In this document: positions 759 to 5,881 of the stretch, piece by piece
How the letters are laid out: each line of letters begins with the position of its first letter
Numbering within the stretch: position 1 is the first letter of the stretch
Virus record (IMG/VR): IMGVR_UViG_2693429582_000012
DNA length: 5,985 bases
Origin: a virus
Taxonomy: Duplodnaviria; Heunggongvirae; Uroviricota; Caudoviricetes
Direction: 5' to 3' (one strand)
Position numbers and translations under genes: made by a program
Notes under the pieces: generated by a model
The model's database searches: none
What the model saw: only the letters and a program-made list of their open reading frames with translations
Told to the model about the DNA's origin: nothing

Positions 759-787
759 ATTGTTCACTTAAAGAGAACATAAGTCAA
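759..787 (-). promoter_or_regulatory. Predicted leftward sigma70 promoter for the cro-like/ydaT-like operon
   Basis: On the minus strand: -35 TTGACT (787..782), 17-nt spacer, -10 AACAAT (764..759). This gives a transcript start about 20 nt upstream of the GGAGG RBS. Prediction from sequence only. Confidence 0.45.
761..779. promoter_or_regulatory. Putative operator: palindrome TGTTC-N9-GAACA (TGTTCACTTAAAGAGAACA)
   Basis: Perfect 5-bp inverted half-sites separated by 9 bp, overlapping the spacer and -10 of the leftward promoter. A near-identical 19-mer recurs at 1297..1315. Confidence 0.5.
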
Positions 788-833: not shown

Positions 834-1223
834 ATGGACATGAGAAAAAAGCAATACGACACCCCGCTGGCAGAAAGGTTAGATACGATCTCGCAACAGC
901 ATCATTTAAGCGGTTCAGATTTAGCGCGCATCGCTGGTGTAGGACGCTCATCAGTCAACGCCTGGAAAAAAAGAGGGACAATCAGTAAAGATTCCGCAGC
1001 CAAAATTGCAGAAGCGACAAATGTTTCCCTTTCCTGGCTACTGACAGGAAAAGAAGATACAAACAGAGAGGCGCTTGATGATGATGAGAAAGCCCTGCTT
1101 GATGTTTACAGAAACCTGCCACCTGTAGAGCGTAGAAATATGCTGGCAGCTTTTCAAATGCGCCTTCAAAAACTGACCGAATTTTACTCAGAATACGTTG
1201 ACCCAATAACGCGACAAAAATAA
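834..1223 (+). CDS. Prophage repressor, XRE/CI-type HTH (RacR/DicA-like), 129 aa
   Basis: ORF with an N-terminal HTH (LSGSDLARIAGVGRSSVNAWKKRG). The C-terminal stretch LLDVYRNLPPVERRNMLAAFQMRL resembles, from memory, the C-terminal region of E. coli DicA-type short repressors. It is divergent from the cro-like gene and followed by an intrinsic terminator. An alternative start at ATG 840 is possible. Confidence 0.85.
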   Translation: MDMRKKQYDTPLAERLDTISQQHHLSGSDLARIAGVGRSSVNAWKKRGTISKDSAAKIAEATNVSLSWLLTGKEDTNREALDDDEKALLDVYRNLPPVERRNMLAAFQMRLQKLTEFYSEYVDPITRQK

Positions 1224-1288: not shown

Positions 1289-1317
1289 TTGACATATGTT
1301 CATCTTAAGAGAACAAT
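1289..1317 (+). promoter_or_regulatory. Predicted rightward early promoter (PL-like) with embedded operator
   Basis: -35 TTGACA (1289..1294), 17-nt spacer, -10 AACAAT (1312..1317). This is the same architecture and nearly the same sequence as the leftward promoter at 759..787. Confidence 0.5.
1297..1315. promoter_or_regulatory. Putative operator: palindrome TGTTC-N9-GAACA (TGTTCATCTTAAGAGAACA)
   Basis: Second copy of the 19-bp palindrome, overlapping the spacer and -10 of the predicted early promoter. Confidence 0.5.
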
Positions 1318-1391: not shown

Positions 1392-1544
1392 ATGGATACG
1401 CTCAATCTTGGCAACAACGAATCTCTGGTATGTGGCGTGTTCCCCAACCAGGACGGTACGTTCACCGCGATGACGTATACCAAAAGCAAAACGTTTAAAA
1501 CTGAAGCTGGCGCGCGTCGCTGGTTAGCCAGAAACACTGACTGA
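1392..1544 (+). CDS. Small prophage protein, 50 aa (possibly YdaF/DUF1391-like)
   Basis: GAGG (1383..1386) 5 nt upstream of ATG 1392. The longer ORF from 1296 would start inside the predicted promoter and has no RBS, so the internal start is preferred. The YdaF-like assignment is a tentative recollection. Confidence 0.55.
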   Translation: MDTLNLGNNESLVCGVFPNQDGTFTAMTYTKSKTFKTEAGARRWLARNTD

Positions 1545-1555
1545 TGAGGTTGACG

Positions 1556-2194
1556 ATGGAATTTAAAGATTTACCTCCTTCAATCCAGGAGATTGCAGCA
1601 CACACACTTCGTCATCGTCTGAACGAACTTGAATTGGAATCGGTAACGAAAAAAGACACTGATAATATGGCTCGTAATGTGCGCGATGCGTTTACCGGAT
1701 TGTATTTCTGTGCGTCTATAAATAAACACGACTCAGAGAGTGTGGCAAATAAAATTGCAGAAACGACAGCGCAAAACATCAATACGAAACCAACGGAAGA
1801 AGAAATTGATCAGTTTGCTCATGATGCTGGTTTAAAAAACAAGAAAGAAAAATCGCCATATGCGGGGAACATGTTTGTTTATGACAATCTCATCAGAATT
1901 CGTGGCGAAATTCCGGCGGAATACCTGGCAAGAGTCCATCAGGCATTGCTTAAAAATTTGGAAACAGAATTATTTGATGGCAACACTAACGGTTTCTTCA
2001 TGGTATCAGGCCTTGAGAAAGACTGGGATGCAGAAAAACGCTGGAATGTTGCTACATGGTTATTCAGTAACAGAGCCGCTGCACTGGAAGCTTCGGCATG
2101 TATTTGCGGCCTGTTCTTAACAGACCACAAATATAATCTGGATGTGTACAGTTATATTTACGCTGAACACGGTCCACTCTGGATTGACTGGTAA
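1556..2194 (+). CDS. Hypothetical protein, 212 aa (216 aa if started at ATG 1544); unknown function, AT-rich
   Basis: Long ORF with GAGG (1546..1549) 6 nt upstream of ATG 1556. ATG 1544 overlaps the upstream stop (TGATG) as an alternative start. No recognisable catalytic or nucleotide-binding motif. By eye about 40% GC, lower than its neighbours. Confidence 0.75.
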   Translation: MEFKDLPPSIQEIAAHTLRHRLNELELESVTKKDTDNMARNVRDAFTGLYFCASINKHDSESVANKIAETTAQNINTKPTEEEIDQFAHDAGLKNKKEKSPYAGNMFVYDNLIRIRGEIPAEYLARVHQALLKNLETELFDGNTNGFFMVSGLEKDWDAEKRWNVATWLFSNRAAALEASACICGLFLTDHKYNLDVYSYIYAEHGPLWIDW

Positions 2195-2404
2195 TTATAA
2201 GGAAACACCAGCAGGGCCGCGGCGACCAACAGAACGATTAAAATCAATAATGCCATTATAAAGGACATTATTTAATTTATCGTCGAATGCTGATTCTGTG
2301 AGCCTCAACTCTGAATGAGTTTTTAATAACCCTGATTGCCTGAGTTGATTTACCAGGCATTCAATCTGTTTTTCAATAAGCGGATTTCTTTTTTTGTTTG
2401 GCAT
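2195..2404 (-). CDS. Hypothetical protein, 69 aa, convergent with the 216-aa gene
   Basis: GGAGG (minus 2414..2410) 5 nt upstream of ATG 2404..2402, preferred over the upstream ATG at 2416 which has no RBS. AT-rich, no family recognised. Confidence 0.5.
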   Translation of the reverse strand: MPNKKRNPLIEKQIECLVNQLRQSGLLKTHSELRLTESAFDDKLNNVLYNGIIDFNRSVGRRGPAGVSL

Positions 2405-2755
2405 TTTATCCTCCATTGAGGTTCTGGGTTAAAAATGGAGACCAACACGCTGTCACGTGTGGTCGTGCGCCGGACACGGATAAGAATCCGGTACTGACAG
2501 TTTACTGAAAGGATATTTCCCTGAAAAGTCAGGGCATAACGCGAAAGCGTACGGCGAAGCTCTTTCCCTTAGAAGGCTTGTCGTTAGATTTCTTCGAACG
2601 TGCGCTTCCGGTTGTGGCACTCCGCGAAATGGCGCGGCGGTAAGTATGGCGGGGTTATTCCTTCCCCTTGAGGACACCGGGTTGTCAGGTTGACCATACG
2701 CTTAAGTGACAACCCCGCTGCAACGCCCTCTGTTATCAATTTTCTGGTGACGTTT

Positions 2756-2798
2756 GGCGGTATCAGTTTTACTCCGTGGCTGCTCTGCCGCCCTTTTT
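2756..2798 (+). terminator. Possible intrinsic terminator-like element
   Basis: GGCGG (2756..2760) and CAG (2764..2766) pair with CTG (2785..2787) and CCGCC (2788..2792), with a 3-nt bulge and an 18-nt loop, followed by T5 (2794..2798). The stem is imperfect, so this is weak. Confidence 0.3.
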
Positions 2799-2802
2799 AA
2801 AG

Positions 2803-2950
2803 TGAATTTTGTGATGCGGTGAATGCGGCTAAGCGCACGCGGAACAGTTAAAACCAAAAACAGTGTTATGGGTGGATTCTCTGTATCCGGCGTTAATTGT
2901 TAACTGGTTAACGTCACCTGGAGGCACCAGGTACCGCATCACAAAATTCA
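2803..2950. repeat. 18-bp perfect inverted repeat pair flanking 112 bp
   Basis: 2803..2820 TGAATTTTGTGATGCGGT is the exact reverse complement of 2933..2950 ACCGCATCACAAAATTCA, checked base by base. Confidence 0.85.
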
Positions 2951-2967
2951 TTGTTGAGGACGCGATA

Positions 2968-3156
2968 ATGGAAACGTTATTACCAAACGTTAATACGTCT
3001 GAAGGTTGTTTTGATATTGGTGTTCTGCTCAGTAACCGGGAGTTTACTGAAGATGCCATTAATATGAGAAAATATGAGCCTTATCTGCTCAATGATAATT
3101 CCATACTTTCCCGAATTGCTCTTCTTGAACTTGGTATTTTCGGAGAACGTCAATGA
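2968..3156 (+). CDS. Small hypothetical protein, 62 aa
   Basis: GAGGA (2956..2960) 7 nt upstream of ATG 2968. The longer frame from GTG 2863 has no RBS and would run through the inverted-repeat region. Confidence 0.55.
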   Translation: METLLPNVNTSEGCFDIGVLLSNREFTEDAINMRKYEPYLLNDNSILSRIALLELGIFGERQ

Positions 3157-3344
3157 CTTCAGCATTTGCACTGATGATGACGGTTTTTCTTATAACGGGT
3201 GAATCACAGAATGTGATTACCGGAATTTATGCCAGTAAAGAATCCTGCCTCCAGGCAAGAGACGAGCAAAAAATTTCTGGTGAATGCCTCCCGGTAAAAA
3301 AAAAAGTATCGCTGTACCTGAATAACGAAACACCGGCTGGATAA
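3153..3344 (+). CDS. Small hypothetical protein, 63 aa, with N-terminal hydrophobic segment
   Basis: ATG 3153 overlaps the upstream stop (ATGA), with GGAG (3142..3145) 7 nt upstream. The N-terminus MTSAFALMMTVFLITG is hydrophobic, suggesting a signal or membrane anchor; two Cys residues follow. Confidence 0.55.
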   Translation: MTSAFALMMTVFLITGESQNVITGIYASKESCLQARDEQKISGECLPVKKKVSLYLNNETPAG

Positions 3345-3436: not shown

Positions 3437-5881
3437 ATGAGCACTGATAAAGAAGAATTTGCGCTATATTGCGAAGCAAAAAATGACAAAGTCAGAAAAC
3501 GTCTGGGAATTAAAGGTGGTTTTTACTGGACTACAGCAAAAAAATTATCTGTTGCCATCTCCCGCTGCATTACCGCAATGGATGACAACGATTATGATGA
3601 AGACGACTTTAAAAAACCCGTTCGCGTCCATTTACCCGTTGTGAATGACCTTCCACCTGAAGGCGTGTTTGATACCGAATTCTGCAACCGATACGAAAAA
3701 GGCGGGGAAGATGGCATTACAATGGTATTTATCGCGCCCTCTCCCTCCGTGCAGGAGAAACCAGCCAGTACTGACAATACCAACGTCAACAGCGAAGACA
3801 TGACGGAGATTGAGGAGAATATGCTCCTGCCGGTTTCTGGTCAGGAGCTGCCCATTCGCTGGCTTGCGCAACACGGCAGCGAAAAACCAGTAACGCACGT
3901 TGCACGGGAAGAACTTCAGGCATTACATATAGCACGGGCGGAAGAACTGCCTGCTGTTACTGCCCTGGCCATTTCTCACAAAACAAAGCTGCTCGACCCG
4001 CTGGAGATTCGCGACCTTCACAAACTGGTACGCGACACAGACAAAGTTTTCCCTAATCCCGTTAATTCCAGTCTGGGGTTAATGACTGCTTTTTTCGAAG
4101 CATACCTGGACGCTGACTATACCGATCGAGGTCTGCTGACAAAAGAGTGGATGAAAGGAAATCGTGTTTTACGCATCAGCCGCACGCCATCCGGCGCTAA
4201 TGCTGGCGGAGGAATTCTTACCGATCGCGGTGAAGGTTTTGTCCACGATAATGCGTCAGTGGAACGTGACGTTGCCGCTGGCGTTCTGGCCCGTTCAATG
4301 GACATCGATATTTACAATCCACATCCGGCACACGCCAAACGCATTGAAGAAATCGTTTCAGAGAATAAGCCGCCCTTTTCTGTTTTTCGTGACAAATTCA
4401 TCGCCATGCCTGGTCACCTGGATTATTCCCGCGCGATAGTGGTTGCGTCCGTGAAAGAAGCACCAATTGGTATCGAGGCTACTCCCCACCGTGTTACCGA
4501 ATATCTGAACAAAGTACTGACCGAAACCGACCATGCCAACCCTGATCCAGAAATCGTGGATATTGCCTGCGGTCGCTCCTCTGCTCCAATGCCGCAGCGT
4601 GTAACAAAAGAAGGAAAACAGGATGATGAAGAAAAACCGCAGCCATCTGGCGCAATGGCAGATGAACAGGCAACGACTGAAGCAGTGGAACCGGATACAA
4701 CTGAACATAATCAGGACACGCAGTCGATGGATGCTCAGCCACAGATAAATTCTGTTGATGCGAAATATCAGAAACTGCGGGCAGAACTCCATGAAGCCCG
4801 GAAAAACATTCCGCCCCAAAATCCTGTCGATGCAGACAAATTACTGGCTGCCTCTCGCGGAGAATTTGTTGAAGGGATTAGCGACCCGAATGATCCGAAA
4901 TGGATTAAGGGGATCCAGACCCGCGATTCTGTGTACCAGAATCAGCCAGAAACGGAACAGAACGACCAGAAAGCGGAACAGAACAGCCCAAATACGCAAC
5001 AAAACGAGCCAGAAACGAAACAACCTGAACCAGTAGTGCAACAGGAACCGGAAAAGATCTGCACCGCCTGCGGTCAGAGGAGTGGCGGCAACTGCCCTGA
5101 TTGTGGCGCGGTGATGGGCGACGCAACATACCAGGAAACATTCGATGACAAGAACCTGGTTGAAGTTCAGGAAGACGATTCGGAGAAAATGGAAGGCGCT
5201 GAACATCCACACAAGGAGAATGCTGGCAGCGCTCAGGACCACGCCAGCGATAGTGAAACTGGCGAGACAGCAGATCCCTTAATTACGGTGAACGGTCATC
5301 GCATTATCACATCCACCCGCAGGTTGTGGCACCATCTGATGATTGACCTTGAAACAATGGGCAAAAATCCTGACGCACCAATAGCCTCAATAGGCGCTGT
5401 ATTTTTCGATCCACAAACCGGAGAGCAGGGGCCTGAATTCAGCAAAATAATTGATATGGGTACATGTGGCGGCACTGTAGACATAAGCACCATCGAATGG
5501 TGGCTTCAACGCTCTGGCGAAGCCCGTGCCGCCATTTTAGCTGATCGAATACCGCTTGATGATGCGCTTTTACAATTACGGGAATTTATAGACGAAAACT
5601 CCGGTGAATTTTTTGTCCAGGTCTGGGGAAATGGAGCCAACTTCGACAACACGATTTTGCGCCGTTCATACGAACGGCAGGGGATCCCCTGCCCGTGGCG
5701 TTGCTACAACGATCGCGATGTACGCACAATCGTTGAGCTGGGGAAAGCCATAGACTTCGATGCCAGAACTGCTATCCCATTCGAAGGTGAGCGCCATAAT
5801 GCACTTGATGACGCCCGTTACCAGGCAAAATACGTTTCAGTTATCTGGCAAAAACTGATCCCGAATCAGGCTGATTTTTAA
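3437..5881 (+). CDS. recE: RecE-like recombination exonuclease, 814 aa: RecE-type N-terminal region fused to a C-terminal DEDDh 3'-5' exonuclease domain
   Basis: GAGG 7 nt upstream of ATG 3437. Long stretches (for example [42 protein letters not shown] and [17 protein letters not shown]) match my recollection of E. coli Rac RecE (exonuclease VIII) N-terminal sequence. The last ~190 aa instead carry DnaQ-like motifs: LMIDLETMG (D637, E639), NFDNTIL (D737), [13 protein letters not shown] (H787, D792). Confidence 0.9.

Follow-up and report, generated by a model that had tools for sequence, protein, structure and literature searches.

A predicted five-way RNA junction closed by a long helix fills the dicF-dicB spacer of a Qin/Rac-like prophage

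Introduction

The phage lambda N leader, the intercistronic sites of phage T7 and the E. coli metY-nusA region are RNase III operon sites. In sites of this kind, a stem of approximately two helical turns is cut within a polycistronic transcript, and the stability or translation of the downstream message changes as a result. The metY-nusA and rpsO-pnp regions also appear on a published list of RNase III substrates, as does the dicA-dicF-dicB intergenic region (review PMC2777011). The enzyme accommodates about 22 bp and makes staggered double cuts that leave 2-nt 3' overhangs, and the two base pairs located between the cuts usually include a G-C pair (PMC6212723).

Two forms of the small RNA DicF have been described for E. 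coli K-12. According to two papers that cite Faubladier 1990 (PMC5069750, PMC9438474), a 53-nt form results from intrinsic termination, and a 72-nt form is generated from the full-length dicBF mRNA with the participation of RNase III. By these secondary accounts, RNase III processing at dicF-dicB is already known for the K-12 ortholog of the locus considered here, and has been in the literature since 1990. A recent study of dicBF discusses only an RNase III site upstream of DicF, and a long ydfABC-dicFB species was not detected in that work (bioRxiv 10.1101/2023.04.14.536235). Because this long species was not detected, read-through transcripts appear to be rare under laboratory conditions.

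Several other structured RNAs are known from prophages and phages of this kind. STnc100 and PasD are both prophage small RNAs of the late region, and PasD, which was observed by Hfq RIL-seq and by northern blot, is reported to be related to STnc100 (bioRxiv 10.64898/2026.05.13.724894). The put RNAs of phage HK022 are about 70 nt in length and consist of two stem-loops, and putL lies directly downstream of PL (PMC9378689).

In this report we examine an RNA element located between dicF and dicB in a 5,985-nt stretch of DNA from a Caudoviricetes virus (IMG/VR record IMGVR_UViG_2693429582_000012). The whole of this stretch is called the window below. An initial annotation of the window had called attention to a pair of perfect inverted repeats and offered three readings for them: an inserted miniature inverted-repeat element (MITE), a pair of binding sites for a regulator, or a long-range RNA helix that gates expression of the genes downstream. 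To what was already known of this site, we add that the stem closes a conserved and covarying five-way junction. In addition, we report that this module is also located before other kil-type genes, in E. coli, Citrobacter and Klebsiella phages, and before tciA, in phages P1, P7 and D6, and that it is a diverged relative of STnc100 that is missed at the Rfam threshold.

Genomic setting of the element

In its entirety, and read on the + strand, the window corresponds to the early-left operon of a Qin/Rac-like lambdoid prophage (Table 1). Its gene order is collinear with that of K-12 Qin, dicA-ydfABC-(dicF)-dicB-ydfD. DicF was recognized by Rfam model RF00039 at 2742-2793; its 75 bits (E = 9.5e-16) exceed the gathering score of 48, and a terminator-like site at 2776-2791, then CCTTTTT, comes directly after it. 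The 62-aa gene that the initial annotation had left without a name is dicB, and the right repeat does indeed stop 5 nt before its GAGGA, as had been described. Next after dicB is a DUF1482/YdfD gene (Pfam), and an 814-aa protein encoded further downstream carries an Exonuc_VIII N-terminal region and an Rv2179c-like exonuclease domain (Pfam). The spacer between dicF and dicB is taken up entirely by the inverted-repeat element.

This arrangement is common in E. coli. When positions 2700-3160 were used as a megablast query, 4645 of 5426 complete E. coli genomes contained the region, and in 3905 of them at least 80% of the query, including the dicF and dicB flanks, was covered. The gene annotated under nearly all of the matches listed was dicB. 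The K-12 match extends over 2700-3072 with 95.5% identity, and the dicF-dicB spacer of K-12 aligns to that of the window without gaps.

Table 1. Positions of the element, its predicted helices and neighboring features (window numbering unless MG1655 is named)
Feature	Position	Strand	Details
CI-type repressor	834-1220		
DUF1391/YdfA-like gene	1392-1541		
DicF sRNA, 53-nt form	2741-2793	+	Rfam RF00039
DicF plus intrinsic terminator hairpin and U-tract	2741..2798	+	directly 5' of helix P1
P1 5' arm	2801..2821	+	left repeat 2803-2820 plus A2801, G2802, G2821
Unpaired junction AAU	2822..2824	+	
P2 hairpin GCGGC-UAAGC-GC(A)CGC	2825..2840	+	minimum-free-energy fold
P3 variable arm GGAACAG...CUGU(A)UCC	2841..2888	+	fold
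P4 hairpin	2889..2915	+	fold
P5 hairpin ACCUGG-AGGCA-CCAGGU	2916..2932	+	fold
P1 3' arm	2932..2952	+	right repeat 2933-2950 plus U2932, U2951, U2952
dicB Shine-Dalgarno GAGGA and start codon ATG	2956-2960 and 2968-2970	+	both outside helix P1
dicB, 62 aa	2968-3156	+	Pfam DicB PF05358, 125.5 bits over 2968-3153
P1 arms in MG1655 U00096.3	~1649442-1649462 and ~1649573-1649593		
Rac copy upstream of kilR	MG1655 1418247-1418407	-	

Structure of the element

A repeat search of the window returned the two 18-nt arms with 100% complementarity and 112 nt between them, exactly as first annotated. This is the longest perfect inverted repeat of the window among those with loops of up to 300 nt. In 60 dinucleotide-preserving shuffles of the window, the longest perfect inverted repeats measured 9-13 nt. 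Read as RNA, and with G.U pairs included, the repeats form a helix (P1) of 21 contiguous pairs. The predicted folding energy of the 148-nt unit is -60.8 kcal/mol, compared with a mean of -37.3 for shuffled sequences (z = -6.7), and a value equal to that of the native unit was reached in 0 of 200 shuffles. In the predicted fold, P1 is the closing helix of a five-way RNA junction that occupies the dicF-dicB spacer.

P1 is variable in sequence among copies of the element. In K-12, a C-to-T change on each arm yields two G.U pairs, and the copies in E. albertii and in Rac likewise carry G.U pairs in P1. In the Rac-type copies, found upstream of kilR, P1 comprises 22 pairs, one of them a wobble, and a single bulged base. 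The Citrobacter copy (L017) retains 21 contiguous pairs even though the outer 12 bp are unrelated in sequence, and the copy of a Klebsiella phage (L129) forms approximately 16 pairs with a different arm sequence.

Comparison of many copies gives the same picture of retained pairing. In a MAFFT alignment of 13 dicB/kil-type copies (alignment A2), 92.1% of cells pair, compared with 33-42% when the partners are slid by 1-3 columns. Fourteen pairs show changes on both sides, nine of which are among the 21 pairs of P1, and the observed values were reached in 0 of 500 shuffles. In a second alignment, of 27 family members (A3), 30 of 41 pairs show changes on both sides, although this alignment is model-fitted and thus leans toward the structure of the model. 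Scored with the covariance model built from A2, the window reaches 173 bits on the + strand and 28 bits on the - strand.

As far as the comparison of sequences reaches, we show here that the P1 helix and its junction exist and are selected as + strand RNA. The strand can be named because G.U pairs are meaningful only in RNA of the + strand. That pairing is kept while sequence is free, and that the + strand scores higher, argues against both a DNA-binding site and a transposon end.

These data bear directly on the proposal that the repeats are two operator half-sites bound by a prophage regulator, with the 112 bp between them looped out. The proposal draws on the presence of an exact inverted repeat near a gene start in a window that encodes a CI-type repressor. 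However, the likely operators of this repressor are copies of another palindrome, TGTTCAnnTTAAGAGAACA, found at 761-779 and at 1297-1315. Moreover, homologs that agree in core and gene order differ in arm sequence, the arms tolerate bulges and G.U pairs, and the model score differs strongly by strand. We consider paired regulator sites to be very improbable.

Inside P1, the core consists of a short junction sequence and four predicted helical elements. G2821 together with the unpaired AAU completes the motif GGUGAAU, which is kept across the wider family apart from GAUGAAU in one member and GGUAAU in two copies of phage D6. P2 pairs in 100% of cases in both A2 and A3, and three of its five pairs have changed on both sides in the wider family. 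P3 varies in sequence and length among homologs and is hypervariable in A2, and its pairs are predicted only.

P4 holds the three GTTAA(T/C) motifs that had been read correctly from the sequence (GTTAAT at 2892-2897, and GTTAAC at 2899-2904 and 2907-2912). In the predicted fold, two of these motifs are the strands of the stem and the remaining one is the loop. Changes on both sides affect 4 of 10 P4 pairs in A2 and 9 of 10 in A3.

The hairpin at 2916-2932, likewise annotated correctly, is P5. Its stem covaries, with the combinations CCUGG/CCAGG, CCGGG/CCCGG, GGUGG/CCACC and GGGGG/CCCCC represented. The loop AGGCA is kept in the copies examined and is AAGCA in phage P1, although invariance of the loop is partly built in because about half of the loci were retrieved by a pattern containing AGGCA. 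The copies in phages P1, P7, D6 and Klebsiella phage were found independently of this pattern.

Three familiar types of site were considered for P5 or for the element as a whole and were rejected. ARAGORN found no tRNA or tmRNA gene in the window, and the P5 loop has 5 nt where a T-loop would have 7 nt. The boxB elements of lambda and P22 carry a GNRNA pentaloop. In an informal check, AGGCA was unlike such a loop and no N-like gene was evident in the window. A sigma-54 promoter across P5 was dismissed by eye, given that the spacing of the GG and GC elements is off consensus.

Copies and genomic distribution

The element is present in 4642 of 5426 complete E. coli genomes, at 10433 places in total; the median per genome is 2 and the maximum is 9. 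Every copy whose context was examined lies in a prophage or in a P1-like phage operon, just upstream of a gene. The genes that follow these examined copies are dicB, kilR, tciA or a small open reading frame (ORF), the last of these being 40 aa long in the Klebsiella phage and approximately 64-68 aa in Citrobacter. No RNA annotation was present under any of the 40 E. coli element matches listed, and 39 of the 40 lacked any annotated feature.

The surrounding genes also recur. A DUF1482-like gene comes after the small gene in the E. coli dicB loci, in the Klebsiella phage and in Citrobacter, where the assignment is confirmed by Pfam for the window and the Klebsiella phage and was made by eye for Citrobacter. 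At the Rac locus, ydaE and racC come after kilR. In the E. coli and Citrobacter loci, an exonuclease VIII-like gene lies at a greater distance downstream. In phages P7, D6 and P1, the copy resides in the ban operon after a dicF-like region and tRNA genes, just before tciA/terB. The ban operon of D6 includes two further copies, with three in all within approximately 3 kb.

Multiple copies per genome, together with perfect 18-bp terminal inverted repeats around a 112-bp core, are what could be expected if a MITE had been inserted upstream of dicB, and the initial annotation had named further copies of the 148-bp unit as a sign of such an element. The examined copies, however, all occupy phage operons before dicB, kilR, tciA or a similar gene, and they are found at few places per genome. 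The flanks of the window copy (...TTTAAAG before it and TTGTTGA after it) share no direct repeat, which means that a target-site duplication is absent. Among the E. coli, Citrobacter, Klebsiella phage and P7/D6 copies, it is the core that is conserved and the arms that differ, which is the opposite of what is expected for ends recognized by a transposase. Both the G.U pairs and the dependence of the model score on strand indicate RNA. A comparison of empty and filled sites in related prophages had also been suggested. No empty site was found among them; the only related observation was a deletion of the left half in one locus (L003). An insertion of this kind is so improbable that it can be neglected.

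Processing by RNase III

The reported length of the longer DicF form places its 3' end inside P1. Counted from position 2741, the end of the 72-nt RNA maps to about position 2812 (2741 + 72 - 1 = 2812), 19 nt past 2793. The position is central in the 5' arm, with 12 pairs toward the base of P1 and 9 toward its top. The 72-nt figure comes from secondary citations, with a precision (gel or S1 mapping) of a few nucleotides. Even if the terminated form ends within the U-tract, the end of the longer form stays inside the 5' arm.

Other features of P1 and of its K-12 ortholog agree with this placement. At 21 pairs, P1 is within the approximately 20-22 bp, or two helical turns, that are characteristic of RNase III substrates. 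For a cut after 2812, a position placed only to within a few nucleotides, the pairs G2811-C2942 and U2812-A2941 would agree with the rule that a G-C pair is usually included between the cuts. A comparison of coverage between an rnc deletion strain and the wild type lists a site at 1649470, in dicF-dicB, that is marked as known and has 26 reads versus 0 (Gordon 2017 Table S1). This site equals window position 2829 and lies inside the element; its read count is 26 and its positional resolution is low. A kilR-sieB site from the same work (1418510) is located approximately 100 nt upstream of the Rac copy and provides no support for cleavage of that copy.

Taken together, we propose that P1 is the stem at which RNase III processes read-through dicBF transcripts and that it separates DicF from the dicB message. 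We put the probability of this reading at about 0.8, with the RNase III data coming from the K-12 ortholog rather than from the organism of the window. P1 would form only in those transcripts that read through the DicF terminator, and the helix of about two turns would then be a substrate for the RNase III of the host. A cut of the 5' arm near 2812 would generate the 72-nt isoform of DicF. The partner cut would be expected at approximately 2942/2943 in the 3' arm, as calculated from the 2-nt 3'-overhang rule (PMC6212723). The expected products of such a double cut are a structured core of about 130 nt and a dicB-ydfD-recE-like message whose short 5'-monophosphate leader begins approximately 25 nt before the dicB AUG.

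Proposed in this way, the helix would part a small RNA from the mRNA for a toxic division inhibitor, and would probably determine what becomes of that mRNA. Both DicF and DicB are toxic inhibitors of cell division, and one prophage operon produces them both. The helix is positioned where the small RNA and the toxin message part, and its function therefore bears on the balance between these outputs.

One observation stands against cleavage by RNase III as the full account of the element. Relatives of the core in STnc100, P7 and D6 have a P1 of only 6-10 bp. These relatives cannot be RNase III substrates in the same way, and thus the core must have another function.

Translation of dicB

Could the helix instead gate translation of dicB by hiding and exposing its ribosome-binding site, perhaps in response to temperature or a ligand? 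The 3' arm of P1 is close to the Shine-Dalgarno sequence, given the 5-nt distance from the right repeat, and in one minimum-free-energy fold CCUU at 2792-2795 pairs with the GAGG of the Shine-Dalgarno sequence and thereby extends P1. In addition, both dicB and kilR are toxic and call for tight control.

The predicted accessibilities do not favor such a gate. The probability of being unpaired is 0.15-0.17 for the Shine-Dalgarno sequence, 0.42-0.43 for the AUG and 0.37 for the whole ribosome-binding window, and these values are equal in read-through, longer and cleaved transcripts. Predicted accessibility is the same with P1, without P1 and after the cut because the partner of the Shine-Dalgarno sequence in these predictions is coding sequence downstream of it and not P1. 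The distance between P1 and the Shine-Dalgarno sequence also varies, from 5 nt in the window to approximately 17-25 nt in Citrobacter and the Klebsiella phage, and in P7 about 38 nt separate P1 from the start codon.

Since predicted accessibility is independent of P1, a direct translational gate is unlikely. The proposal of a long-range RNA helix holds with regard to its kind, as indicated by covariation and the predicted fold; gating through the ribosome-binding site is improbable. On these predictions, an effect through mRNA stability, or a plain separation of small RNA and mRNA, is more plausible than control of ribosome access.

Kinship with STnc100

The core of the element resembles a known family of small RNAs. 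Rfam model RF02076 (STnc100) matches the window at 2791-3000 with a score of 34.0 bits (E = 1e-4), which is below the gathering score of 47, and the alignment spans model positions 1-206 with the same architecture. Three dicB/kil-type loci (L017, L018 and L031) gave no STnc100 match at the gathering threshold, whereas 11 enterobacterial loci pass it. A covariance model built without any STnc100 sequences (R1) finds all 11 of these Rfam-positive loci at E <= 2e-6.

The motifs GGUGAAU and CACCnGGAGGCACCnGG-CACC are common to the window and the 11 STnc100 loci, with GAUGAAU and CAUC in one of them. A genome-wide search with the pattern CACCNGGAGGCACCNGG, which proved too short, returned 120 loci. 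Most of them matched by chance in GC-rich genomes, and the useful ones were limited to 13 from enterobacteria. Family members are found at gene boundaries, often adjacent to tRNAs, DicF-like RNAs or terminators.

This kinship invites a tentative alternative, to which we assign well under even odds, wherein P1 mainly closes an RNA domain of the STnc100/PasD type. The function of the domain would then be what matters, and RNase III would be incidental or would serve to release it. Such a domain might function as a trans-acting small RNA bound by Hfq or, in cis, as a leader to which a protein or ligand binds.

The shared architecture and the recovery of every Rfam-positive STnc100 locus by a model derived from dicB/kilR-type copies alone speak for the alternative. 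So do the conservation of the GGUGAAU junction and the AGGCA loop while the stems covary, the presence of a terminator rather than a gene after some relatives (L031, L035, L050 and L112), and the reported status of PasD and STnc100 as prophage small RNAs (bioRxiv 10.64898/2026.05.13.724894). The alternative nevertheless leaves unexplained why a P1 of approximately 21 bp is found in three lineages with unrelated arms, and only before kil-type genes. The window copy lacks its own terminator, and prediction of promoter-like sites gave none on the + strand. A function for the domain is also compatible with the RNase III explanation and does not exclude it.

It is conceivable, albeit doubtful on present evidence, that the core belongs to a family of RNA modules that is widespread in lambdoid and P1-like phage operons and for the most part lacks annotation, and that these modules have a function of their own. 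Such a family would take in STnc100 and, by reported kinship, PasD, which is linked to the element solely through its published relationship to STnc100. The function of the family would reside in the GGUGAAU junction and in the AGGCA loop with its embedded GGAGG, and in the dicB/kilR lineage a longer P1 would have coupled this function to RNase III.

Because the window copy lacks a terminator and is followed by the dicB ribosome-binding site, it could become a discrete RNA only by processing. The excised core of about 130 nt might thus act as a third trans-acting regulator of the dicBF operon. Alternatively, the core may be a punctuation element that binds a protein or the ribosome and sets the expression of a toxic gene. 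The long P1 looks like a specialization of an older, widespread module. Neither the kinship of the core with STnc100 nor this specialization is documented in the literature searched, and the identity of the repeat is unaffected by either.

Comparison with known systems

The put RNAs of HK022 resemble the element in that they are cis-acting structured RNAs in the early operon of a lambdoid phage, here one without an obvious N gene. By description, the two differ in size, topology and position: the window element is approximately 150 nt long, forms a five-way junction and is located after the DicF terminator. Since put RNAs must precede the terminators that they override, this position is unfitting for a put-like antiterminator, and we rejected this candidate.

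STnc100 is much closer in structure. Both RNAs have a closing helix with inner GGUG/CACC pairs, a GAAU junction, a P2 hairpin and a long-range or hairpin arm. Both also place a CCnGG-AGGCA-CCnGG hairpin directly before the 3' strand of the closing helix, and their covariance models detect each other in both directions. They differ in that P2 is GCGGCUAAGCGCACGC in the window and CCCCCnnnGCGGnGGGG in STnc100, and in that the window P1 has 21 bp where STnc100 has 6-10 bp. Moreover, the window copy is in an early-left operon directly before a coding gene and lacks its own terminator, whereas STnc100 and PasD are located in the late region near Q, stx and lysis genes, often with a terminator after them.

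The dicBF site of K-12 Qin is the orthologous locus, with the same gene order and with the helix kept, and the 3' end reported secondhand for the 72-nt DicF falls inside the 5' arm. The K-12 helix has two wobble pairs, compared with the perfect 18-bp core of the window. As in the lambda N leader, the T7 sites and metY-nusA, a stem of about two turns would split a stable RNA or upstream cistron from a downstream message, but at the dicF-dicB boundary P1 closes a large conserved multi-helix junction instead of a simple hairpin.

Conservation of the P5 loop among copies of the element

The loop of the P5 hairpin and its closing pairs (2922-2926 in the window) read GGAGGCACC in every copy of the element examined across the family, with GGAAGCACC in phage P1, although this apparent constancy must be read in light of the fact that approximately half of the loci were found with a pattern that included the motif itself. 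Embedded in the motif is a perfect Shine-Dalgarno-like GGAGG, which is followed by no conserved start codon.

One operon of phage D6 holds the module in three copies, all inside about 3 kb and with tRNA genes in between. Their P5 stems differ (GGGGG/CCCCC, CCUGG/CCAGG, and GGUGG/CCACC), and the AGGCA loop is common to all three. Phage P1 keeps a single copy with the loop AAGCA, adjoining the minus-strand genes upl and plp; in phage P7, the same position is without these two genes.

Coordinates of additional features in the window and of module copies in phages
Feature	Location	Description	Basis
Near-palindrome TGTTCACTTAAAGAGAACA	window 761-779	one of two copies, either side of CI-type repressor gene	repeat search
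Near-palindrome TGTTCATCTTAAGAGAACA	window 1297-1315	one of two copies, either side of CI-type repressor gene	repeat search
814-aa 'recE-like' protein	window 3437-5881	Exonuc_VIII N-terminal region, residues 57-189	domain match
814-aa 'recE-like' protein	window 3437-5881	Rv2179c-like 3'-5' exoribonuclease/DEDD domain, C-terminal, residues 632-804	domain match
Module copies, phage D6 (L126)	878-986; 2482-2637; 3674-3795
Module copy, phage P1 (L125)	2499-2622

Predicted structures flanking the element

The Shine-Dalgarno sequence of dicB is predicted to be mostly paired (window 2956-3030; unpaired probability of about 0.16), and its partner lies inside the dicB coding region. As judged by predicted accessibility, this pairing is independent of the upstream helix, and it may in its own right hold back translation of this toxin gene.

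On the 5' side of DicF, a long imperfect hairpin is predicted at 2535-2620 of the window, with roughly GCGAAAGCGUACGGCGAAGC... pairing with ...UUCGAACGUGCGCUUCCGGUUGUG. The fold of the whole region from 2430 to 2745 is no better than those of shuffled sequences (z = -1.5). A 190-nt DicF precursor with an RNase III-dependent 5' end has been described in K-12 (bioRxiv 10.1101/2023.04.14.536235). Because this end would map to approximately 2604-2609, on the 3' strand of the predicted hairpin, DicF may have an RNase III stem on either side.

Other genes of the operon

The near-palindromes beside the repressor gene probably serve the divergent promoter and the early-left promoter as operators. A 73-aa ORF (2195-2416, minus strand) sits within the early-left operon on the opposite strand, and Pfam returned no match for it or for a 212-aa ORF (1556-2191, plus strand).

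Natural variants and DicF-like neighbors

In E. coli WL164 (locus L003, about 2950-3090), the element has lost its left half, and with it the 5' arm, to a truncated ATP-binding-protein pseudogene that stands in its place; the right half is retained together with kilR. This natural variant could serve as an arm-deletion allele.

The 'dicF-like region' annotated in the ban operon of phage P1 is one DicF-like neighbor. Another is found in the Rac-like locus L002, where a DicF-like terminator hairpin (GGCGGCAUCAG...CUGAUGUCCGCC, then UUUUU; about 2975-3017) lies immediately 5' of the element. This placement before a kilR-type element parallels that of DicF before the dicB-type element in the window. 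The 5' 'seed' part differs from that of DicF.
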